64,000 nt of DNA from Basidiobolus ranarum (taxonomy: Eukaryota): positions 1 through 64,000 of the forward strand of contig JASJQH010006878.1 in assembly GCA_040143965.1 (NCBI GenBank), in the 5' to 3' direction. The translations under genes and the position numbers were made by a program. The notes beneath the pieces are model-generated. The model ran no database searches and was not told the DNA's origin. It worked only from the letters and a program-made list of their open reading frames with translations. Positions 39,938 through 58,114 of this stretch are shown piece by piece (positions within the stretch are counted from its first letter, which is position 1; every line of letters begins with the position of its first letter).

Positions 39938-42066
39938 ATGGTGAGTTATTTAAACATACAAGAGTTTTGTATTTCCTTCTTGAAAATTAACTCTTTGTTA
40001 TAACAGTCTGCTACTGCCGAGAAAGTTGAAAGACCTGTTGCTAACGAAGCTAACCGCAAGGTCAGAGAAGGCGTCGCCTTGAATTTGTCCACAGATGATG
40101 TCAAGTATGGAGCTACATTGTTATTCCCAATCGATCCCTCGACTAACAGAAATTTACTTCTAGACTTCCTGTTAAGGGTGAAAGAAACATCTTAGTAACT
40201 TCTGCCTTGCCTTATGTTAACAATGTTCCCCATTTGGGTAACATTATTGGTGCTGTTTTGAGTGCTGACGTTTTCGCTCGTTATACACGCTCTCGTGGTT
40301 ACAATGTTCTCTACGTTTGTGGTACTGATGAATATGGTACTGCTACTGAAACCAAAGCCTTAGAGGAAGGTGTTTCATGCCAAGAGCTTTGCGATAAATA
40401 TAATGCCCTTCACGCACAAGTCTACGAGTGGTTTGGTATTGACTTCGACTACTTTGGTAGAACCACCACTAAGCAACAAACTGAGTAAGTACTTCATTTC
40501 CTTGAAACCATTCTGAAGCGACCCCTTTTTAATTGAACTTGCTGTAGAATTGGCCAAGACATCTTTTTGAAGCTTCAGAAAAACGGATACCTTATTGAGG
40601 ATAGTATGACACAGTTGTACTGTGAAAAATGCGAAAGATTCTTGGCTGATCGTTATGTTGAGGGTACTTGTCCCAAGTGCCGTTATGTCGATGCTAGAGG
40701 TGACCAATGTGATCAATGCCAACAGTTGCTTAACGCCACCGAGCTTATCTCTCCTCGTTGTAAACTTGACGGAAATGCCCCAATCACCCGTGATTCTACT
40801 CACATGTTCTTAGACCTTCCCAAGCTTCAACCCAAATGTGAGGAGTTTGTCAGAGAATCTAGCCAAACTGGTCACTGGGCCAACAATGGTAAGATCATCA
40901 CTCAATCTTGGTTGAAGGAGGGTTTGAAGGTTCGTTGTATCACCCGTGATCTTAAATGGGGTACTCCCGTTCCTTTGGAACACATGAAGGATAAGGTTTT
41001 CTATGTTTGGTTCGATGCTCCAATCGGTTACCCATCTATCACCGCTAACTACACCTCTGAGTGGGAGAAATGGTGGAAGAATCCCGAGGATGTTAAACTT
41101 TATCAATTCATGGGTAAAGACAATATTCCTTTCCATACCGTTATATTCCCCTGCTCTTTGATTGGTACCAACGACCCATGGACTATGTTGCATCATATCA
41201 GTACCACTGAATATCTCAACTATGAGAATGGTAAATTCTCCAAGAGTAGAAATGTTGGTGTCTTCGGTAACAATGTTATGGAGACTGGAATCCCCGTTTC
41301 TGTCTGGCGTTATTACCTCTTATCCAACCGCCCTGAAACCAACGACAGTGTCTTCACCTGGAAGGACTTCATCATCAGAAACAACAGTGAATTGTTGGCT
41401 AATGTTGGTAACTTCTGTAATCGTGTTATCAAGTTCGTTGACTCTGCCAAGTACAATGGCGTCCTACCTCCTTTCTCTCTTGAAGGAGACAATGAAAAAC
41501 AACTCATTGAAGATGTGAACAAGTTGCTTGATTCTTACATTGATGCTCTTGAAAATGTTAAATTACGTAGTGGTCTTGAGATTGCTATGAAGATTTCTCA
41601 ACGCGGTAATCAATACCTTCAAGAATCTAAACTTGATAACTCTCTCTATGACAACGAACGTCCTCAATGTGACACCCTTATCACAGTCGCTGTTAATTTG
41701 ATCTACTTGCTCTCGGCTGTTTTCTACCCCTACATGCCTACTACTTCCGAATCGATCTGTAGACAACTTAATGCACCAATCCCTCGCATTCCTGAGACCT
41801 TCCAAATCAACATTCTTGAAGGACATGTTATGGGTAAACCTGAATATCTTTTCAAGAGAATTGATGGAAAGATGGAGGAAGTTTTCAAGCAGAAATATGG
41901 TGGCGGTGCTAAGGAAGAGCCTGCTAAGAAAAAGAAGTCCAAGAAGAGCAAGAAAACCGAGGCTAAACCCCAAGTGGAAGGCGACAAAGCCGAGGCTAAA
42001 CCCCAGGCTGAGAGTGAAAAGGCCGAGCCCAAGGTTGAGAGCGACAAAACCACCGAAACTGCCTAA
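39938..42066 (+). CDS. MES1: cytoplasmic methionyl-tRNA synthetase
   Basis: [12 protein letters not shown] (HIGH), CxxC zinc knuckles and KFSKS. The first exon is ATG only. Confidence 0.97.
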
Positions 42067-42782
42067 AGCATTGATCCAAATCTACTCATGTTGACCACTT
42101 TTCGACCAGTTTTTCATCCTCATTTCATCTTCTGTAAATCATATTACTGATCGATTATATAAGAAAACCATATAAAATAAACTTATATAGCTACTTGTAT
42201 AATGCAGGAATACGAGTTTGTTTTCTCCAAATGCGTTTCTCTCCACAAGTACACATCAATGCATCATTGAAGGATCACCTTAAAAGGCTGCGCCAGACAT
42301 CAAGTGATTTTTGCTGAGCTAAGAGAAATCCAAGACCAAGATTACTGGGGCTATTGAGATATTTTGTGATACACTCTTACTAAACTAGTCATTTCTGCAA
42401 AGTTGTACTATGGGAGTATTGGCTTATTTGGTAGAAAAATTAAGGAAAGTCCATATTTTACCTTATTCGAATCAATACGTATCTCTCTCGGTGTGTAGAT
42501 GTGGCCCCAAGGTAGGACCAAAATTTGAGCGAGCGTAAGATCGTGTTACATTGACCCTCGACATACATGAACTACGCATAAGTGCTAGTTACGATATTTT
42601 GCTTTTTTCTTATTCCCGGCTCTAGCCTTCCTTATATGAGCTATTTTCTTCGAACTGTTTTCAATATACAAGAATAGGTGTTGTCTTTCAGAGATCAATA
42701 CCTCATATTCGACATTTCTTTTCATATCTGTTTTATATACTTATTTATTAGCATTAATACTCTAATTCCAGCTCTCGAGCAA

Positions 42783-43842
42783 ATGAAACTCAACACTCAC
42801 TCATGGATAGCATATCAAGTGCTCTGTTTATTTCTGATATCAACCACTGATGCTCTGAAGGAATCCTTGACGTACCATATAGTAGGGGGTGTTCCAGCTA
42901 TTAAAGATGAATTCCCATTCATGGTCAACGTGTATATAGATAATTGGCCATCTTGCGGGGGTGCAGTTTTGGCAAATGAATGGATTGCAACCGCTGGACA
43001 TTGTGTGAATGCTGCATATATAGACGACGAGAGTAACCAAGAAGCTAATGTTTACAGACCACTTAATGCCACACGATTGAAAATTGCAGTAGGGTCCATT
43101 GCAAAGAATTCCCCAACCCTCTTGCCAATCAAATCAATTGTTGTTCATCCTGACTATACACCCGGCTCGGAAATGGTAGCGTCATAACTTTCTGTCTAAA
43201 TTGTTTATTCAATAGAAAGCTAATCAGTTACTGATACCCTTTCTAATATAGAATGACCTGGCTCTTTTACAGCTTTATCAACCATTAGCTTTCAATCGTA
43301 GTGTACAAAGGGTGCCTATAAGTAAATCCAAAGTACTTCCTGGGCAGAATGTAACTGCTTTAGGCTGGGGAAGCAACGAGTCGAATGTGTCTGCAGTGTC
43401 GCTATTAAAGGTTGACTTTAATATAGCACCTCTGGACCCATGTCGCATGATGAATCCAGAATTTACCGACAATCAAGGCTCGCAAATTTGTGCAGGAATG
43501 ACACCTGGGCGAGACACTTGCTATGGAGATTCTGGGGGTCCACTGGTGCAACAAATTAATGGGACTATTAGTTTACTGGGGATTACTAGTTACGGTGGCT
43601 CTATCGTCAGTGGGGGACCATCTTGCGGAGGGGACAACAACATTGCCTTTTACACCCACGTTAGCCAATATATGAACTTCTTGCGCAACACAACTGGACT
43701 ACCAGATGCTCAGTTTGGGCCAGTGCAATCAACTAACTCCACACCAACCACTGATCAGACTACCAGTAATGCTCACTTATCCCAAAGTTTTAACTTCTTC
43801 AGTCTTTTTGTAATTTTCGTATGTAGTTTGAACTTCCTGTAA
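42783..43842 (+). CDS. secreted trypsin-family (S1) serine protease with hydrophobic C-terminus
   Basis: Signal peptide, IVGG, TAGHC, NDLAL and RDTCYGDSGGP, then an S/T linker and hydrophobic tail. One intron. Confidence 0.95.
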
Positions 43843-44450
43843 GCATTCTAATTGTTGTAATCAACGCTATACTATGTATTGTTCTTTAATAATTCATTTC
43901 CTGAGATTAATCATTAGTAGGTTACCTCATTAATATAAAGTGCCATACAAATCAGCTGCTGGTTCCTTTGCTCTTCACAGAGAAGGTTCTTTTACCAAAG
44001 ATGTCCTAATATAATTGTATATATGGTACAACTGTTCTTTTTCCTGTTGGCCAAATCAGGTGAAATTAGACTCGATCCTCTGTGGTTTGGAGGCTTAGCT
44101 TGATTCCCATATTTCCTCGTTTCTGTGAATTCATGGAATTTCAAGAAATATCGGAATATGTTAGATTCTATCACCTTGTCAATCTTGAATTCCCTAATTC
44201 GTCTCTAATCCGTTCAACATCAAGATATTTGAATTAATCCTATTTTCATAGCATCTTATTGAACATTAGGGTACTAAATTGTCGAGTAGTATTGCTTACC
44301 AAAAATTGCGTTTCTCATGCTTACCCGGTCCCCCTGCTCACTGAAGTAGCTGGTTCCATTTATCTTATCTAAACCGCTCCTCCAAACACCTTCAGGTTCT
44401 GTCCCCATCATTTTTACACTCTATTAGTTTCTTTGCCCTACTTACTTGTG

Positions 44451-46276
44451 ATGGATCCCAGAATCAATGAAAAGGAAGCTGCTGCTATCCACGCTGCTGC
44501 AGTAACCAGAAACTACTCTTTACAACCACGTTTAGGTACGATATACCCCCTTTTTTTGACTTCTTCCCCTCATCTACAAACTATATGTGCAGTATGTAAC
44601 ACTATTATTCTGTAATATAGATTACAGAACTGTTGCCGGTGTCAACGGTCCTTTAGTCATTCTTGATAACGTCAAGGTATTTCCCCTGTTTACGTTATAT
44701 AACTTCTCACCTCATTTTTCTCACACGCTTATCATACTATAGTTCCCCAAATTCGCTGAAATTGTCGAACTTACTTTACCAGATGGTACTAAGCGTTCTG
44801 GCCAAGTACTAGAAGTCCAAGGAAAGAGAGCTGTTGTGCAGGTATGTAGCTATTCATGCTCACTTTACTTGTTCAATTCTCATGTAGTTTCTCCAAACCG
44901 TAGGTTTTCGAAGGTACCGCTGGTGTTGATGCTCGTGCCACTCATGTTGAATTCACTGGTGATACCCTAAAGATGCCCGTCTCGGAAGATATGTTGGGTC
45001 GTGTTTTCAACGGTTCTGGTAAAAGTATTGACAAGGGCCCTAAAGTATTTGCTGAAGAATTCCTGGATATTGAAGGTTTGTTTCACTACATTCATTCCGA
45101 ATGTTTTTTTAGTCAATCCTCTCATTCCCTTGCTAACAAAATACCATTTTAACACCCAAAGGTTCTCCAATCAACCCCTTCTCACGTATTTACCCCGAAG
45201 AAATGATTCAAACCGGTATCTCTGCTATTGATACCATGAATTCTATTGCCCGTGGTCAAAAGATCCCCATTTTCTCTGCTGCTGGTTTGCCTCATAATGA
45301 AGTTGCAGCTCAAATTTGCCGACAAGCAGGTTTAGTCAAGAAGCCCACTAAGGATGTTCACGATGGTCATGAAGACAACTTCGCTATTGTATTTGCTGCC
45401 ATGGGTGTCAATATGGAAACTGCTCGTTTCTTCAAGCAGGACTTCGAGGAGAATGGCTCTATTGAACGTGTCACATTGTTCCTCAATCTTGCCAATGATC
45501 CTACTATTGAACGTATCATTACTCCCAGATTGGCCTTGACTACCGCAGAATACTATGCCTATCAGCTCGAGAAACACGTGTTGGTTATCTTGACCGATAT
45601 GTCTTCCTATGCTGATGCCTTGCGTGAAGTTTCTGCTGCCAGAGAAGAAGTACCTGGTCGTCGTGGTTATCCCGGTTATATGTACACCGATTTGTCCACC
45701 ATTTACGAGCGTGCTGGTCGTGTTGAAGGCCGTAATGGCTCCATTACACAAATCCCTATTTTGACTATGCCTAACGATGATATTACACATCCTATTCCTG
45801 ATTTGACTGGCTACATTACTGAGGGACAGATTTATGTGGACCGTCAACTCCACAATCGCCAAATTTACCCACCCATCAACGTTTTGCCTTCTCTTTCTCG
45901 TCTCATGAAGTCTGCCATTGGTGAAGGTATGACTCGTAAGGACCATGGTGATGTTTCCAACCAACTGTATGCCAAGTATGCCATTGGTCGTGATGCTGCT
46001 GCCATGAAGGCTGTCGTTGGTGAAGAAGCTCTTAACCAGGAAGATAAACTTTCTCTCGAGTTTTTGGACAAATTCGAAAAGACCTTCATTGCTCAAGGCC
46101 ATTACGAATCCAGAACCATTTTTGAATCTCTCGATCATGCCTGGTCTCTTCTTCGTATCTTCCCCAAGGAGTTGCTTAACCGTATCCCTCAAAAGACCTT
46201 GGCCGAGTTTTATCAACGTGATCGTAAGAAGGGTAACAAAGACACCATTGATAACGAAATTGACACTAAAGCATAG
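44451..46276 (+). CDS. VMA2: V-type ATPase subunit B
   Basis: [32 protein letters not shown] and [15 protein letters not shown]. Confidence 0.98.
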
Positions 46277-48711: not shown

Positions 48712-50881
48712 CTAAAAAGGCACATAACTCAACCCTGATTCTTGCTTGACTAGCATTTGTTGACGTCTTACTAACTCTTGTTCAAGATCTTGAATGCGTC
48801 GGTTAAGGGCCAAGAATAACACGGATTTCGGCATTTGGTTTGGTGCTTGAGATAAATCAATGGCCGCTGGATAATAAAATATTGTTTAGATTCGGTATAC
48901 TCTAATATATCGCAACAACTACTTACCAGAGCTTTCTGTCATTCCTCCTAATCGTCTATTATTAAACCAACCACGGAGAGCATGTAGTGTTAGGTTCATA
49001 CTGTTGGCAAGCTCGATGATTTGAGGGTGGTTAGGGTATGGCGTGGTGGTAAAGACCTCCTCCAACTTAGCCACAACCTCAGGGCTAAAAAGAGTGTAGC
49101 CATCTCTTTGACTCTCTAAATCAGACTTGCGGTCTCGACGGCGAAGCTCTTTAAACCATCGCTCGATATTCTACAATATATAATCAAATTTAGTTACTTG
49201 GAAATTAATGTCGCTCGCTATTGCCATTGTTCTGACCTTGAACGTTTCATTGTACTGCTCAGCCAACTCTTGGATCGTTTCTCGGGATGGATACATAACT
49301 TGCTTGTGGACTTCTTCTACTGCAAGGTGAAGAGGATCCTCATAGTAACCTACTCTGGATTGCCGCTCACGGAACCAAGCATTAATTTTAAGATAGTCAA
49401 TACCCAATTGCTCCGCCAACTCCTTACGCTGTAGCGAGGTGGGGTACCCATGACATTCGTCGTAAAGCTTACTCATTGCTTCCACAACTGGTGGTGGGAA
49501 TCTAGCTAACTTAGCGGCTCGTTTGTTCTTGGGTTTAACAGTTTTATCTACCATTTTTCTCTTCTCTGGAGTTGTTTTGGGGTGCGGGTTCAGAGGATGT
49601 TGATCTATCTCGATTCCTCTTTCTCGGTCTTCGGCACGGCGTTTGTAAAACCATTGAGAGATTGACTAGCGTATAGGTATTACTAAAATGGAACGCAAAC
49701 AATCATTCCATTCAATAACATACCTTATCACTTCTCTTTAAATGCTCCGCAAGCTCTAATAATTGTTCAGCACTGGGAAATGGTGTTTGCTCGTAAAAGT
49801 CATGTAGTGTCTGTATAGCTTCAGGAGTATACTTGACCAATGCAGGTTTAATATCAACGCCATCATTTCTGTCACGATCTCGTCTCTTAGAAAACCAGCG
49901 TTTGATTCTCTAATGTTAATAAGAAAATGATTAGAATATGTCTACGTGGACAATACGAATATCTCCAGTCTAAGTAACAAAACTTACTCTTAACGTGACG
50001 TCGTTTTCACTGGCTAACTGTTCCATAACTGGAACTGGTGGATAAAATGTATCTTTATAAACCTTTTCACATGACTCGCCAAGTTTTTCCAAATCACATT
50101 CAGGTGCGCTACAAATAACTGGAGAAATGATTTCGGCACCTTTTTGGCGTAACTGGTTTCGTCTATTTGTGAACCACAAGATAATTTTCTATGAATGAAT
50201 TAAACCTTGTTTAGAATACATGCCACTCGATGAACTTGTTGTGAAAATACCTTTCTATTTACTCCCATTTTGTAGGCGATTTGTGTATATTCTTGTGTAG
50301 AAGGATATTTATTCTGTTGGAAGATGGGCTCAAGGTAAAAAGCAAGCGCGTTCTTTTTTCGAGCATTAATCGATTCATAATCTGCGGAAGTTATTTGATT
50401 GACGCGTTTGTTGGTTGGTGAGTAATATAGTTGCCAAAAACTTCTCACTATCTCAGAAGTCGTGTCAGCCTCTTGAGCAAATTTTTTCAGTTGGTCTTCG
50501 TTAGGAGAAGAAGTAGCCAAGATAAAGGAGCGTATTTTTTCTACATTTTCAGTAGTTAAGCCCACCTCTTTACTCCTAGTAGCTTTTCTTCTTCTGTTTC
50601 TAAACCAAGCTTTGGTGGACTTTATAAGTTCAAGTTCGGAAAGAGAGTAAGTGACAGTTGGTGTCAAACTTATTTGATAAAAAAATTACGCGACAAACCT
50701 CTTGTTCAACCGAGCAAACTTCACAAATAACACTATATTCATATTGGTTTGGGTAGGGATTGCATATATAGTATTCTTCAAAGCGTTCTCGTACAGACTG
50801 GCTTAAGTGTCGGGTGATAGAGGATTTTTTTGGCTTGTCAGAGTCTACACATTCAACCTCGACCTCAGCTTCAGCTGCCAT
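48712..50881 (-). CDS. multi-homeodomain protein (about 8 tandem homeodomains), 7 exons
   Basis: Repeated YP..(helix 2)..WF.nRR units: AWFRNRRR, LWFTNRRN, RWFSKRRD, QWFYKRRA, AWFRERQS, RWFKELRR and GWFNNRRL, plus one degenerate unit. A C-terminal coiled-coil-like segment follows (3' end slightly uncertain). Confidence 0.88.
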
Positions 50882-51650
50882 TCTAAAGTTTAGTAGTCAA
50901 GCGATATTAATTGATACACCTAATCTATATAATTTATCCAAATGGATTTTTTTTCTTTTTTCTACTTAAAATTCAATCATGATTTTCTTAAGATAAATTG
51001 ATGATATATTTGAACATGACTGTGTATTGTCGACACGTACCATTCTCAAAAGAAAGGTCTTGAGCCATTCTGAGCATAGATTCAGAATAGAACAAAGCAT
51101 CCATCTTCTATTCTAGAATATCAGTGATCAGCGAGAATCCTAGTAGAAATTTATTTCTGATCATTGGGAGTTTAAAGATTGAGGTCAATGTATGCTCCAC
51201 CACTGTTGCACCAATCTAAGCTCGTACCACCTTTATTATATTATTAGCTTTCCTGGCTTTTCTGAAGCTCTCTTACCAATCATATGTCTGATGATCCAAT
51301 TTATTCACGTTGATTCAATCCTAAACTGGGGAAGAGTATCCCCCCTGTTGTCTCCTATCTTACTCCCCCCTTGTTAGATCACAACCAAGCAACATGGTAA
51401 TTCCGTGGCGCACTTGATGAATTTCTTGTTCGCCTTTTTTGTTGTATTTTCTTTTTCCCTGCGTTGGATTGATTTTCCTTTCCCAATCCCTACATTCTGT
51501 AACTCTATAGCTCCTCATTTGTCTTCTTCAGCCTCATATTCTTTCACATTAACTCATTTACATTCGTTCTATTTTGCTCATCTCCTTTACATTACCAAAC
51601 TTTATTAAACAGCAGTTGACTTCGACAGTTTTGCGTCACTTATTATTACC

Positions 51651-52415
51651 ATGCGTGAATACAAACTTGTTGTACTTGGTTCAGGTGGTGTTGGTAAATC
51701 TGCCTTGGTAAGCATCTGCTTTCTATCATATCTCCTTCAAGTCTTCCTTGACGTTTGAATATTGTAACTATTGCTCACTGTTTATCCTTTATCGAATACA
51801 TATTTTAGACTGTTCAATTCGTGCAATCTATATTTGTCGAGAAATACGACCCGACTATTGAAGATTCGTACAGAAAGCAGGTGGAGGTAGATGGACAACA
51901 ATGCATGTTGGAGATTTTGGATACTGCTGGTACGGAGCAGTTTACTGCAATGCGAGACCTTTACATGAAAAATGGACAAGGTTTTGTGTTGGCTTATTCA
52001 ATCACCTCTATGGCCACTTTCAATGATTTAGCCGAGTTAAGAGAGCAAATTGTCCGAGTTAAAGACTCAGAACAGGTGATTCTAATTAGAATTTGATCTA
52101 TATATGAACCTCCATTTACCATATTTGGAGTTCACTATCCTGGTATAGAAAGGTCCATTTAACTCAACCACTTTATTTTGGAAATAGGTTCCTACAGTTT
52201 TGGTTGGAAATAAATCGGATTTAGAGGCTGATCGATGCGTTCCGCGTGAGGTTGGTTTAGAACTAGCACAGCATTGGCCTGGTGCCACTTTCTTTGAAAC
52301 CTCAGCACGTAAAAGAAGCAATGTTGATGATGCTTTCTTCGAACTTGTACGACAAATAAATCGACAAAATCCTGGACGTTTGGATAAGCGCAAAAAGAAG
52401 TGTATCATCCTCTAA
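51651..52415 (+). CDS. RSR1: Rap1/Rsr1 small GTPase
   Basis: [36 protein letters not shown] (Rap-type T61) and CAAX CIIL. Confidence 0.95.
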
Positions 52416-52931
52416 CTTTACCTCTTCCTTCAGCTTTTATTTTCCAATCATTTCCATCATCCCATTTAATTCCACCTAAAATTTGTTTGTTGTCTTCATG
52501 TCCGGATCTACACCCAGCCCTACTTCTATTTACCTTCTTTTAATAGCTTCTTACATGGTCTCTGTGGACCATCGGTGATTATCTCAGTGTTGGATCTTTA
52601 AAGAATAGTCACCGAATTTGTACTTCCACACTGCTGGAATTTGTTAACACTAATATATACAACCTCCCCAAATACCCATCAAGCTACATATTTGATCAGA
52701 TATCTTTTAATCAAAATCTTCACTAACTAAATCCCAGGTATTTGGTGTGTTGAGTTCATTGAGTCTAACCAATAAATCTGGAATTCTAAGCAACATTTAT
52801 ACTTGACCTTCTATACTAGAATATACATCTGAACAACACTTGAAAGATAGAGCCAATCTCTTACAGGTGGAAGTGCTAGCAGCAACAGGATAGCCAGTAA
52901 AGTGGAATTGTTGGGTATTGAGTTTGCACTA

Positions 52932-55128
52932 CTAATAAGCCGAAGTATCAATCAATTTATAGTTACTAATGCAATCGAGAACCCAATTGGCTAACACCAC
53001 CTCACGAGAATATTGCTCTCGAAGCCTATTTTTCGTTCGCATTGCTGTCGCATTATCACATATCACTAAAGTCTGTTGTGAACAATTCGAGGGAGGACAC
53101 TTGTCGACGATTGTGGCTCCACCTGCAGTTAACAGTGTGATAAGGTCGTCACGCGACGGTTGCTTAAACTCACCAACAAGGAGATATTGTTGGTTATGGA
53201 ATAACTTTGGTTCCTACGTGCAATTCGAATCATTAGCTGGTGAGGATGGAAAGTAAATTGATCCACAAAGAGGCTTACTCCATTTTTTATACTTTGACGA
53301 GCTCTCTTCGGTCCATAATTTGAATAACGTTCGTCACCAATAACTTCATAAACATCTTCATCAAGCCATTCATTGCGGCTCAGTGAATCTTCAATCCCTA
53401 CTCGATTTCAATATAGTTTAGGTTGAGGTGTATTCTATGGAAAGGGTAAGCTGTACAAAAGATATACATTGGTAATTTACAAGCCAACGTCCATGCAGTA
53501 TGGCAAGAAAGTATTTCATCGTACGTTTTGAGGTGCCTTTAACTATCAATTGTTTTAATACCATGAAGGATAATGAACTTCGATAATCCATAGATTACCC
53601 GCTTCGGTGACTAGATGTGTAACGTCGCTCGTAAACTCAGTGACGATGGTAGCATTAAGTTTTTTGACCGAGGTATTCATTTTTTTCTTAAGAATAACAA
53701 ATATTAGCTTGGTTATCATCAATGTGAGCGATGTAGAAGAAATGCTGTTATACAATTTGAGAAGCCTTAAGCATCGTTCCTAAGATAACCGGCATTTCTT
53801 GTGTATCTTGATTCTGAGAGGCCACTTCAGAAGAATCAAACAAATCTGGTGAGGAGCACCTTGTGTTCGAAAGCGATTCACGCGATGTATCTTGAGTATC
53901 GTTCTGAATCATGATTTTTGGTGTTCCTTCATCTAGAATATCCGATTTAATAAAAGGAATACTTCCTGTTTGGTGATGAGAGAACTGAACTTACTATTCA
54001 GTTCAGCTAAAACCACATCAACGTCTGATACTAATTGCTGTAGTAACATCAGATTCTGCGTGATTGAAAGTTTTAGTATGGTGTCAACCCAAGTGGGAAT
54101 TTTTCTGAGATTCAATACCTGTGTAGAAGGCTCCACTTGAGAAGCGTCAATATCCACCGACAAACTCGGGTCATATTGAATATGAGCTAGATATCCAGGA
54201 ATGTTAATGGAATCCATGATAAACATTTCCCATCAAACTTACGAGAGTTCGTAGATTTTTCTTTAACAATAAACAATGAGCAAAAGAAAATCGTAATAAG
54301 ATAAATGAGTGTATACACATACCTAAAGAAGAGATGATGTTTTTCCCTTTAGAATATTCGGGTTTAATCATAATTCTATTATTTACGTGATCTCCAGAAT
54401 CCTGAAATATTAATGTTAAACATAATCCCAAGAATGTTTTGATGGTTATTTTGACAATCCACTTACTTGATCGACATCCATAATTTCCATTTTAGCCTTT
54501 CCTTTACTTTTGGTTTTACGCCGTTTATTTCTAATCGGGCTATTGGGAGTATCGTCCTGTTTCGTGTCTACGCCCTCTTTCACCGGGTAGGGATATGCCT
54601 GAGAGAGGTTGGGGATTGGTTCGCATTGCCATTCACTGTGTTGCTTTTCTTGAGATAAGGCTATAATGGTGGTTGGAAGTTTGAGAATTTAACCAATATA
54701 GTAAAAAGGAGGCACTAGTTACCAGCCCCTGTCATTTCTTCGTATGAATCGAGTAATTCTTGATATGCATCGGCTAGTTCCCCGGTTGATTCCATTTTAT
54801 TCAGTCCTCTCTTAGTTATTGGAGTTTTACAAAGTGGACATTTTGCTAGATTCATTTGAAGCGATTGGTGTATGCATTCTTCACAGAATAAATGGTTGCA
54901 TTGGGTTGAATAAGGATCTCGTAGAATTCCCAGGCTAATGAAGATAACATATGTGAATAGTTAAATTATAGAGCTCTTCTTCGAGAATATATTGGTCATT
55001 TAAAAAGACTACCAAATTGGACAATTGAGTTCTGCTGCCATTCGTCGTAGAAGACCACTTACAGTTTTTGGGATTTCCTCATTCACCAAGACTGATTGAG
55101 AGAGGATTGTATTTTGCTCCAAAGACAT
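52932..55128 (-). CDS. BRCA1: BRCA1-like protein (N-terminal RING, C-terminal tandem BRCT), multi-exon
   Basis: RING ELNCPICL..CNHLFC..CPLCKTPITKRGL. BRCT1 THLV..RTMKYFLAILHGRWLVNYQWIEDS..GPKRARQS. BRCT2 KLF..GGATIV..WVLDCISNY. Confidence 0.88.
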
Positions 55129-55529
55129 ATGTAAGAGTTTAAAGCAAAGTTCGGTGTGATATACAGTAGAAACTACGGTAACGAAAAATACTATTTGCTA
55201 TGTTGAAGTTCAAAAAGATATTATGCCCTCTTGTCTCGAATTTCTGGTTAGTTCATTACCATAGTAGCAGTCAAAATCACAACAAATCTTTGAAACAAAA
55301 GCTAGCAGAGGGTAGAAAAGCTAACTGCGCCATTGCTTAACTTAATTCAACTTTCTCTATAATGAATAAATTAAATCCATTCCAAAGGGGTCATCAAATC
55401 ACGGTTTTATAAAAAAATCTGAGGTTTTTTTATGCTTTCACGCGATCGTATCATTAAGTAATAGTAGCATTCACACCAAAAAGATTTAGTTGCTATTTAC
55501 CTTGTTCTCCTAGAGTATTTCTCGACGAG

Positions 55530-58114
55530 ATGCCGGGTCAAAATCTCAAAAGTAACGTCGACAATGATGACAGCTCGTCTCTATTTATGATTGTATCCTT
55601 TTTATATAGTCCAACATACTAGTTTAGCCTATCTATACTTTACATACGTTTAATTCCTTAACACTGATCTATAGAGCGAAGAAGACATCGCATATGAAGA
55701 AGACCTTTTACGAAACCCTTATACCCTTAAAAGTTGGTTGAGATATTTGGATCACAAGAGTAACTCTTCACTCCAACATAAAATCTTTATCTATGAAAGA
55801 GCTGTCAAAGAACTCCCTGGTTCTTATAAGCTTTGGAAAGCTTACTTGGATCTTAGACGTTCTATCCTCAAGGGTAAGAATCCTGTAAGCTTTGCTCCCG
55901 CATATGAAAAAGTGAACAATTGCTTTGAAAGAGCTTTAGTTTTATTACACAAGGTATGCCACTTCAGAAACCCCCATTCGCATCCACTACTTTGATTTTA
56001 ACTAGATGCTTTGAAACTATAGATGCCTCGTATCTGGCTTGACTATTGTCACTTTTTGATCAATCAAGGGTATGTTACAAAAACCCGTAGAGTTTTTGAT
56101 CGCGCACTTCGTGCTCTTCCCATTACCCAGCATTCTAGAGTATGGGAATTATACTTAAGATTTGCGCGTCTGGTTGGTGGTGAAACCTCGTTACGTATTT
56201 ACAAACGCTATCTTCAATTAGAACCTGACCATGTAGAGGAGTATGTTGATTTACTCATTTCCTTAAAACGATACGACGAGGCCACCACTAAGCTTGCCGT
56301 AATAGCTAATGACGATAAATTCAAATCGTTACATGGAAAGTCTAAATATCAGCTGTGGATGGAGCTCTGTGATATTGCTTGTAAACATCCCACAGAAATT
56401 AAGACCTTAAATATCGAACCTATTATTCGTGATGGAATTAAACGATTTACCGATCAGGTAGGAAAATTGTGGAATTCTTTAGCTAGATACTGGATAATGC
56501 AAAATCAATTCGAAAAAGCTAGAGACGTATACGAAGAGGGGATAAATTCTGTCATGACAGTTCGTGATTTTACTCAAGTCTTCGATGCATACGCTGAATT
56601 TGAAGAGTCTGTTATCACATCTAAAATGGAATTGGTTGCTGAGCGAGCAGAAGATGGTGAACAAGATCCCGAGGAAGATTTGGATCTTGACTTAAGATTG
56701 ATGAGATTTGAAAAATTAATGGATAGACGGCCATTCCTTGTCAACGATGTTCTCCTTAGACAAAACCCTAACAATGTCAGCGAATGGGAAAAACGTGTTG
56801 CCTTGTGGAAAGATAATGCTGAAAAGATTGTTGAGACATACACAACAGCCATAGCTACTATAAATCCCAAGAAAGCCACTGGTAAACTCAATCAATTATG
56901 GGTGAACTTTGCTAAGTTTTACGAAAAAGGAGGTAACTTGGAAACAGCCCGTGCCGTTTTTGAAAAAGGAGTTTTGGTCAACTTCAAGTCTGTGAATGAT
57001 TTGGCCGATCTCTGGTGTGAATATGCCGAAATGGAACTTCGACATGAGAATTTCGATAGGGCTGCTGAGATCATGGGTCGCGCGACTGCTCCTCCAAAGA
57101 ACACCAAAGTCAGTTACCATGATGAATCGATACCGGTCCAAAATCGTGTCTTTAAAGCTTTGAAGCTCTGGTCGTTTTATGTTGATCTTGAAGAAAGTAT
57201 TGGTTCTGTTGAATCCACTCGTGCTGTATATGACCGTGTTTTAGACTTGAAGATTGCTACACCACAGATCATCATCAATTACGCCGCTTTTCTGGAAGAA
57301 AACAAATACTTTGAAGAGAGTTTCAAAGTATATGAGCGGGGTGTTGAGTTGTTCAACCATCCAGTGGCTTTCGAAATATGGAATATCTACCTCTCCAAGT
57401 TCCTTGAACGCTTTGGCGGCTCCAAGCTTGAGCGCGCCCGAGATCTCTTCGAACAAGCATTGGAGAAGTGTCCTGCTAAATTTGCCAAACCTCTTTATTT
57501 GATGTATGGCAAACTTGAAGAAGAACACGGTTTAGCCAAGCATGCCATGAAGATTTATGATCGTGCTACTAGAGCAGTCTCTGATGAAGACAGATTTGAA
57601 ATGTTTAATTTCTATATCGCCAAGGCCAGTGCCTCATTTGGTATCGCATCTACCCGCGAAATTTATGAACGTTCGGTGGAGGTTTTACCAGATCACCAAG
57701 CCAGAGAAATGTGTATGAGATATGCCGAGTTAGAAGTTAAGCTTGGCGAAATTGACCGTGCTAGAGCTTTATATGCATTTGGATCTCAGTTCTGCGATCC
57801 TCGAGTAAGTGTTAGTTGTTTAAGAGGATCTTTCTTCATAGTGTTGACCCTTATTTCTATTTTAGATTGTACCTACGTTCTGGAAGATCTGGGAGAATTT
57901 CGAAATTAAGCATGGTAATGAGGATACTTACAAGGAGATGCTTCGCATCAAGAGAAGTGTTCAAGCACAATATAACACGGAGGTTAATTTCATCTCGGCT
58001 CAAATGATCGCTACTCGCCAGGAACAGCAGCAACAAGAAACTGAATCTAAGGCACCAGCAAGCACTGAAGTAGCTGGATCTGGAGAAATTGATATCGACG
58101 ATATGGATCTCTAA
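55530..58114 (+). CDS. SYF1: pre-mRNA splicing factor SYF1/XAB2 (HAT repeats)
   Basis: [42 protein letters not shown] and [17 protein letters not shown]. Confidence 0.97.
55593..55674 (+). other. U12-type GT-AG intron (intron 1 of SYF1)
   Basis: 5' GTATCCTTT, branch TTCCTTAAC at 55654-55662, short distance to AG, phase 0. Confidence 0.85.

Follow-up and report, generated by a model that had tools for sequence, protein, structure and literature searches.

A gene on the minus strand of a 64,000-nucleotide (nt) stretch of Basidiobolus ranarum DNA (assembly GCA_040143965.1, contig JASJQH010006878.1, positions 1 to 64,000; here called the window) encodes a single protein that, judging from profile matches and structure models, is an array of eight homeodomain folds, seven clear and one degenerate. 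Five of these homeodomains (HD1 to HD8) are interrupted by an intron at the same position and in the same phase. The coding sequence, positions 48712 to 50881, runs exactly from ATG to stop codon in seven exons and six introns, and its 1767-nt frame (588 codons plus the stop) specifies 588 amino acids (aa). The spliced model is letter-for-letter identical to the annotated NCBI protein K7432_000157 of B. ranarum (P0001 in our set of matches), which is recorded as a "hypothetical protein." When exon 5 was used as the query, it retrieved this 588-aa protein and a 594-aa protein of Basidiobolus meristosporus CBS 931.73.

The introns of the array follow a strict pattern. Introns 1 to 5 (79, 62, 78, 58, and 66 nt) have GT..AG ends in all five cases, and according to the list of open reading frames (ORFs), an in-frame stop is reached in each of them when it is read through. 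They lie after residues 61, 184, 251, 313, and 456, and the homeodomains that they split have Trp48 at residues 66, 189, 256, 318, and 461, respectively. All five introns are in phase 0 and separate homeodomain position 43 from position 44 (43/44), exactly four codons ahead of Trp48. These observations bear out the first-pass annotation, a reading of the bare sequence, which had placed five introns at an identical codon. The first six exons all begin in phase 0, and exons 2 to 5 (369, 201, 186, and 429 nt) are each 0-0. A sixth intron, at positions 48867 to 48926, is in phase 1 and downstream of the last homeodomain; it was absent from the earlier list. In Pfam scans of single exons, homeodomain fragments ended at profile positions 40 to 42 at exon ends and resumed at 43 to 44 at exon starts. 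Lone exons thus yield homeodomain fragments only, broken at profile positions 42/43, and splicing restores whole domains.

The number of units was supported by both profile and structure comparisons. Pfam PF00046 matched K7432_000157 in seven stretches, not one or two (193.9 bits against a cutoff of 22.9; E value, 3e-58), and it also matched the B. meristosporus protein in seven stretches (E value, 3e-56). HD2 had no Pfam match in the scan of exon 2. When HD2 was compared with a profile of the other 14 repeats using hhalign, it aligned in exact register (P value, 1.8e-4; probability, 48.8%), and when modeled alone, it formed three helices with a predicted local distance difference test (pLDDT) score of 75.9. 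Every match listed by Foldseek for this model was a homeodomain-containing entry (query TM-score [TMq], 0.56 to 0.67), including the fourth homeodomain of ZHX1. The AlphaFold2 model of the full-length protein (mean pLDDT, 63.9) contains eight consecutive three-helix sets, at residues 28 to 76, 84 to 127, 150 to 199, 217 to 266, 280 to 328, 371 to 416, 424 to 477, and 486 to 529, followed by a helix at residues 551 to 579. The count of seven clear domains and one degenerate domain, originally made by eye, therefore agrees with the profile scan and with the model. Models of HD1 and HD5 superposed on solved homeodomains (engrailed, Antp, NKX2.1, and others) with Z scores of ~10 over 53 to 58 residues and a root mean square deviation of ~1 Å (range, 0.6 to 1.9 Å). 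Consecutive Trp residues are spaced 56 to 57, 66 to 67, 67, 62, 92, 51, and 63 residues apart, and most units abut. The tightest junction is HD6-HD7, where the Trp48 residues are 51 apart and the 60-residue span of HD7 covers part of helix 3 of HD6.

The B. meristosporus protein (P0002) is an orthologue that is collinear with the B. ranarum protein and carries all eight units, with 74% identity by alignment and 72% by BLASTP; the repeat number, for which variation had been suggested as a check, is thus the same in both species. Identity per unit is 43 to 51 of 60 residues, with HD2 lower at 31 of 60 and HD5 outside this ungapped scoring because of a five-residue insert. Residues 48 to 53 are identical between the species in seven of the eight units, which points to selection acting on each helix 3, whether canonical or noncanonical. 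The C-terminal helix (residues 551 to 579) is also conserved in the orthologue. In searches of 1.84 billion representatives and 5.8 billion clusters, the orthologue was the sole relative above generic homeodomain similarity; at the sequence level, the gene is thus confined to the genus Basidiobolus, in line with the earlier suggestion that the array is lineage specific. A word-indexed search at near length recovered no proteins beyond the two from Basidiobolus, and the best feature score in the ESM Atlas was 0.82, under the level that counts as more than a lead.

The recognition helices differ markedly among units. Asn51 is a near-universal base contact of homeodomains, and it is kept in three of the eight units, HD1, HD3, and HD8 only; the residues at positions 50 and 51 read RN, QL, TN, SK, YK, RE, KE, and NN from HD1 to HD8. 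Both the variation and the restriction of Asn51 to three domains had been read correctly from the sequence. Trp48-Phe49 is present in seven units and swapped to F-W in HD2, and Arg53 is present in six of eight. HD1 and HD3 retain Trp48, Phe49, Asn51, Arg52, and Arg53, with the same residues in both species. These two units are also set apart by net charge over 60 residues: HD1 carries +5 and HD3 carries +9, and the remaining units all lie between -1 and +1. For helix 3 alone, six units have a charge of +3 to +7.

We next considered how the array arose. Any two units share 2 to 17 of 49 residues, and the longest repeat at the DNA level is an 18-nt motif encoding W-F-x-x-R-R. The lack of any longer DNA repeat, together with the low identity among units, indicates that the duplications are old, and the repeat tree places them before the divergence of B. 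ranarum from B. meristosporus. That five units have an intron at the same position and in the same phase speaks for their descent from a single unit that already had it; independent gain at the same one of ~180 position-phase slots in all five is very unlikely, with odds of ~(1/180)^4 by our own estimate, which is not the output of a tool. Duplication of an intron-bearing unit is therefore well supported. The first-pass annotation had proposed tandem exon duplication. The part of this proposal that stands, on the strength of the shared phase 0 site at 43/44, is that an intron-bearing unit was duplicated; a single exon as that unit is not shown. When units were split at the intron, the scores were too weak to tell exon duplication from domain duplication; HD4 and HD7 were alike on both sides of the intron, a likeness explained no less well by duplication of a domain plus its intron than by duplication of one exon. 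A tree of the individual repeats (46 units, 54 columns) resolved only the eight orthologue pairs, with Shimodaira-Hasegawa-like approximate likelihood ratio test (SH-aLRT) support of 86 to 100, and the HD4+HD7 pair, with support of 90. We propose that the array grew by repeated duplication of a homeodomain unit already bearing the phase 0 intron at 43/44. HD2, HD6, and HD8 would later have lost the intron or would never have carried one; precise intron loss or a different origin could account for its absence. The whole array would have been complete before the two species diverged and would have been under purifying selection since then, odd recognition helix residues included.

We also examined distant proteins for comparable architectures. 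HMMER searches of the 1.84 billion representatives returned 353 matches at an E value of ≤0.001, 4 of them at ≤1e-30, and matches other than the query had 20 to 42% identity. The best distant matches were also multi-homeodomain proteins: all 18 that were scanned carry 4 to 16 PF00046 stretches. Organism names were attached to 5 of the 30 clusters looked up, all of them animals (a moth, a sheep, stick insects, and two nematodes), and the named nematode matches (Heterodera and Trichinella), at 31% and 28% identity, are at the level of generic homeodomains. Dense arrays were found in metagenome-derived proteins (P0003, P0005, P0007, P0008, P0009, P0010, and others), with 8 stretches in 515 to 554 aa, 12 in 1300 aa, or 16 in 1666 aa and a period of ~56 to 66 residues; by a crude motif count, Asn51 is kept in 235 of 565 units of such arrays. 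P0007 aligns across four or five of the Basidiobolus units at 25 to 28% identity. A one-to-one correspondence of units was sought with P0007, P0008, P0009, P0014, P0050, and P0017, and no diagonal pattern was seen; every P0007 unit was most similar to HD5 or HD8. The dense arrays and the Basidiobolus array therefore either expanded independently or have diverged too far to be matched. No relatives of P0079 were found in genome contigs and none of P0009 in viral contigs, and P0007 as a query recovered only itself. The dense homeodomain architecture nevertheless seems commoner than the literature suggests. Two animal matches have a different appearance: P0006 (sheep, 2210 aa) and P0004 (moth, 748 aa) carry homeodomains at exact periods of 273 and 114 residues, respectively, and look like tandem copies of a gene or satellite that automatic annotation has joined, not like true multidomain proteins. 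Another cluster, P0018/P0162, consists of 374-aa proteins with six homeodomain stretches in a single uninterrupted ORF, on contigs of up to 90 kb, and is labeled "transcriptional regulator with XRE-family HTH domain" by one source.

Taken together, we judge it fairly probable that this is one seven-exon gene, that its eight-homeodomain array arose by unit duplication, and that the product is a nuclear transcription regulator with labor divided among its units. The gene structure, the number and fold of the units, the intron positions, and the conservation are shown here; the mechanism of duplication, the division of labor, the nuclear location, and dimerization are inferred. The protein would most likely act in the nucleus on transcription. 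HD1 and HD3, which are basic and keep Trp48, Phe49, Asn51, and Arg53, and perhaps HD8, would make base-specific DNA contacts, and the five units in which position 51 is Lys, Glu, or Leu and the charge is near zero would serve as spacers, protein contact modules, or noncanonical nucleic acid binders, in keeping with proposals made for certain ZHX homeodomains. We prefer this view of function because of the residue patterns, the charge distribution, and the precedent of the ZHX proteins. The linker at residues 331 to 362 is a possible nuclear localization signal, and the predicted helix at residues 551 to 579 is a possible dimerization helix; a predicted complex of two copies of residues 536 to 588 scored 0.03 against a mark of 0.32, which speaks neither for nor against dimerization.

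Several observations weigh against this account. The repeat tree, in which the label needs 6 changes, does not show the eight units to be one clade; it speaks neither for nor against a single origin of the array, whose monophyly is not demonstrated. The N-terminal arms are without the usual Arg3 and Arg5, including those of HD1, HD3, and HD8. The Foldseek matches of HD2 have E values of 0.07 or worse, with none at ≤0.001, and the full-length model is weak overall, with a predicted template modeling (pTM) score of 0.30 and an input alignment of 2 sequences only. Finally, the orthologue model has five extra residues, the first of them Val, exactly at the position of intron 4, so at least one of the two annotations is uncertain there. 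This insert, at residues ~314 to 319 of P0002, fits a donor called 15 nt farther downstream or a real shift.

One alternative is that all eight units contact nucleic acid, with the array reading a long composite site or wrapping DNA or RNA and with positions 47, 50, 51, and 54 acting as a specificity code for each unit. The positive charge of helix 3 in six units is in keeping with such a role, as are the identity of helix 3 residues between the two species in all units, the period of 51 to 67 residues with little linker in six of the seven intervals, and the frequent loss of Asn51 in other dense arrays (see the count above). The solved double homeodomain of DUX4, which is the best two-unit sequence match (E value, 1.4e-5), binds DNA in tandem. 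However, six of the eight units have a net charge of only -1 to +1, five have lost a base contact that homeodomains almost universally keep, and the model (pTM, 0.30) shows no confident packing between domains. We regard this alternative as unlikely. The same judgment applies to the opposite proposal, equally unlikely in our view, that the protein is mainly a protein-protein scaffold or coregulator similar to HOPX or the ZHX corepressors and has no specific DNA binding alone. Five of the eight units are without Asn51, none of the eight has a canonical Arg-rich N-terminal arm, and ZHX proteins are reported to dimerize and bind NF-Y (PMC9570228). Against this proposal, HD1 and HD3 are strongly basic and keep Trp48, Phe49, Asn51, Arg52, and Arg53, all invariant between the species.

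A broader idea, which we consider improbable, is that the dense arrays constitute an unrecognized recurrent class of repeat proteins, with a period of ~55 to 65 residues, Asn51 replaced in most units, and each helix 3 individually conserved, that act as modular DNA or RNA readers and of which Basidiobolus would provide the first fungal, intron-marked case. If true, the homeodomain fold would have been reused to follow extended DNA or RNA at one unit per few nucleotides instead of as a TAAT-type binder, and the identical phase 0 introns could let splicing pair helices 1 and 2 with different recognition helices. Regulated skipping of the symmetric phase 0 exons in the Basidiobolus gene itself, yielding isoforms with fewer units and chimeric homeodomains (helices 1 and 2 of one unit with helix 3 of another), is very improbable in our estimation. 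Any skip of exons 2 to 5 would keep the frame and rebuild a complete domain, since all boundaries fall at the same homeodomain position; however, exon skipping is rare in fungi, in which intron retention dominates, and exons become symmetric in any case when a unit that carries an intron is duplicated, without any need for selection for skipping. Least credible of all is an annotation artifact in which neighboring single-homeodomain genes or a decaying pseudogene were merged, as appears to have happened in P0006 and P0004 (exact periods of 273 and 114 aa), because the introns of 58 to 79 nt are too short to hold promoters or start codons between units, three units are entirely contained in exons that also hold parts of neighboring units, the frame is open across 588 codons, and the collinear orthologue (74% identity) comes from a separate source record.

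The coordinates of the gene and its parts are collected in Table 1.

Table 1. Coordinates of the eight-homeodomain gene, its exons and introns, and the segments of its product within the window
Feature	Position	Strand	Description
Coding sequence	48712..50881	-	Complete, ATG at 50881 to stop at 48712-48714; 588 aa; K7432_000157
Exon 1	50699..50881	-	183 nt; acidic N terminus, arm and helices 1 and 2 of HD1
Intron 1	50620..50698	-	79 nt; GT..AG; phase 0; HD1 positions 43/44
Exon 2	50251..50619	-	369 nt; HD1 helix 3, entire degenerate HD2, HD3 helices 1-2
Intron 2	50189..50250	-	62 nt; GT..AG; phase 0; HD3 positions 43/44
Exon 3	49988..50188	-	201 nt; HD3 helix 3, HD4 helices 1-2
Intron 3	49910..49987	-	78 nt; GT..AG; phase 0; HD4 positions 43/44
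Exon 4	49724..49909	-	186 nt; HD4 helix 3, HD5 helices 1-2
Intron 4	49666..49723	-	58 nt; GT..AG; phase 0; HD5 positions 43/44
Exon 5	49237..49665	-	429 nt; HD5 helix 3, basic linker, entire HD6, HD7 helices 1-2
Intron 5	49171..49236	-	66 nt; GT..AG; phase 0; HD7 positions 43/44
Exon 6	48927..49170	-	244 nt; HD7 helix 3, entire HD8
Intron 6	48867..48926	-	60 nt; GT..AG; phase 1; after HD8
Exon 7	48712..48866	-	155 nt; C-terminal tail with predicted long helix, stop codon
HD1	50569..50827	-	Residues 19-78; intron 1 inside; 50/51 = R,N; charge +5; candidate DNA binder
HD2	50401..50580	-	Residues 75-134; degenerate; F-W for W-F; 50/51 = Q,L; no intron; no Pfam match
HD3	50138..50379	-	Residues 142-201; intron 2 inside; 50/51 = T,N; charge +9; candidate DNA binder
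HD4	49859..50116	-	Residues 209-268; intron 3 inside; 50/51 = S,K; net charge 0
HD5	49615..49852	-	Residues 271-330; intron 4 inside; 50/51 = Y,K; net charge 0
Long linker	49519..49614	-	Residues 331-362; Lys/Arg/Pro-rich; low model confidence
HD6	49339..49518	-	Residues 363-422; no intron; 50/51 = R,E; helices 1 and 2 separated by one additional residue
HD7	49120..49365	-	Residues 414-473; intron 5 inside; 50/51 = K,E; overlaps HD6 helix 3
HD8	48931..49110	-	Residues 477-536; no intron; 50/51 = N,N; best single Pfam stretch; charge -1
C-terminal helix	48742..48828	-	Predicted; residues 551-579; 3-4 spacing of hydrophobic residues

Upstream of the gene, on the same strand, an ATG at 51104 opens a short frame that extends as far as a GT (position 51040); a candidate acceptor AG (50884-50883) immediately precedes the main ATG (all read by eye). 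If spliced, the short frame runs on out of frame across the main start. On sequence grounds, the interval 50883 to 51104 (minus strand) may hold a 5' untranslated region intron and an upstream ORF. The flanks, 40537 to 46276 and 51609 to 57909, contain a Met-tRNA ligase, a trypsin-like protease (in two ORF pieces), a V-ATPase subunit, a Psg1-like ORF, a Ras family GTPase, and Syf1. A mating-type locus was considered and rejected, as these neighbors are ordinary housekeeping genes, and the gene content gives no sign of a mating-type or mobile region. With a profile of 16 repeats, no other homeobox genes were detected in the window.

To our knowledge, the fungal homeobox genes that have been studied carry one homeodomain. 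Full-text searches, which leave subscription papers and supplements outside, returned no fungal or Basidiobolus multi-homeodomain protein. Fungal genomes usually have less than a dozen homeobox genes, according to one review (PMC4901127). The gene described here, an uncharacterized "hypothetical protein," places a conserved eight-unit array in an early-diverging fungus, so extreme multi-homeodomain architecture is not confined to animals; this extends a known theme and does not found a new one. Its five identical introns record with unusual clarity, at the molecular level, how such an array grows, and its five units without Asn51, with helix 3 unchanged between species, offer a natural test bed for nonclassical homeodomain roles.

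The first-pass annotation had also raised the question of whether the architecture matches a well-described family. Multi-homeodomain proteins as a kind have been described, as with CEH-100 and the ZHX proteins, but the Basidiobolus protein does not belong to the ZHX family nor, as far as the comparisons made here reach, to that of CEH-100. The closest parallel by description is in Caenorhabditis elegans, in which CEH-100 has 12 tightly packed homeodomains and CEH-99 has 4 (Hench et al. 2015, PMC4448998); CEH-100 has been called the most extreme multi-homeodomain case (Burglin and Affolter 2016, PMC4901127). These nematode proteins resemble the Basidiobolus array in having divergent units, almost no linker, and units down to 55 residues, and their genes are likewise lineage restricted and are thought to have been born by local duplication (PMC4448998). 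In contrast to the Basidiobolus gene, which is kept in two species, CEH-100 is a nematode gene described there as having no orthologue even in other Caenorhabditis species; we set the two apart by description, not by sequence comparison.

DUX4 is the best multi-unit sequence match among solved structures, with HD3-HD4 of the query aligned to HD1-HD2 of DUX4 (E value, 1.4e-5), and it provides a structural precedent for joint DNA binding by a closely linked pair of homeodomains. Both DUX4 units keep the canonical DNA contact residues. Unlike the eight-unit Basidiobolus protein, DUX4 is mammalian, has two PRD-like units, and is not an orthologue. The ZHX proteins have 4 to 5 homeodomains, some with structures predicted to disrupt DNA binding, and it has been suggested that multiple copies free some units for new functions (Nail et al. 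2020, PMC7144352). ZHX1 to ZHX3 and HOMEZ thus share with the Basidiobolus protein several homeodomains per chain, some of them atypical. In ZHX proteins, however, two C2H2 zinc fingers lie N-terminal to the homeodomains and the linkers are long, whereas the Basidiobolus units are nearly contiguous and no zinc finger family was among the 14 Pfam families listed for K7432_000157 at an E value of ≤1.

Outside animals, the TALE class proteins BELL2, BELL3, and BELL4 of Marchantia carry homeodomains a, b, and c in one protein (PMC8476127). These are also nonanimal proteins with several homeodomains, but they have two or three units and the three-residue loop extension of TALE, and in the Basidiobolus protein the units show the usual spacing of 60 residues. 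Positions 16/20, Pro26, and Trp48 line up without gaps in a 60-residue register in seven of the eight units, so the extension is absent; HD6 has one additional residue, not three, and the PF05920 matches (95.1 bits) overlap stronger PF00046 matches. As for a resemblance to HD-Zip proteins, the helix at residues 551 to 579 has a pLDDT of 50 to 66 and a heptad spacing assigned by eye, and it begins ~22 residues after the last helix of HD8. Membership in the ZHX, TALE, and DUX families is ruled out by the lack of a zinc finger, the lack of a three-residue extension, and the presence of eight units. The architecture is a fungal, intron-marked case of a known but rare kind.

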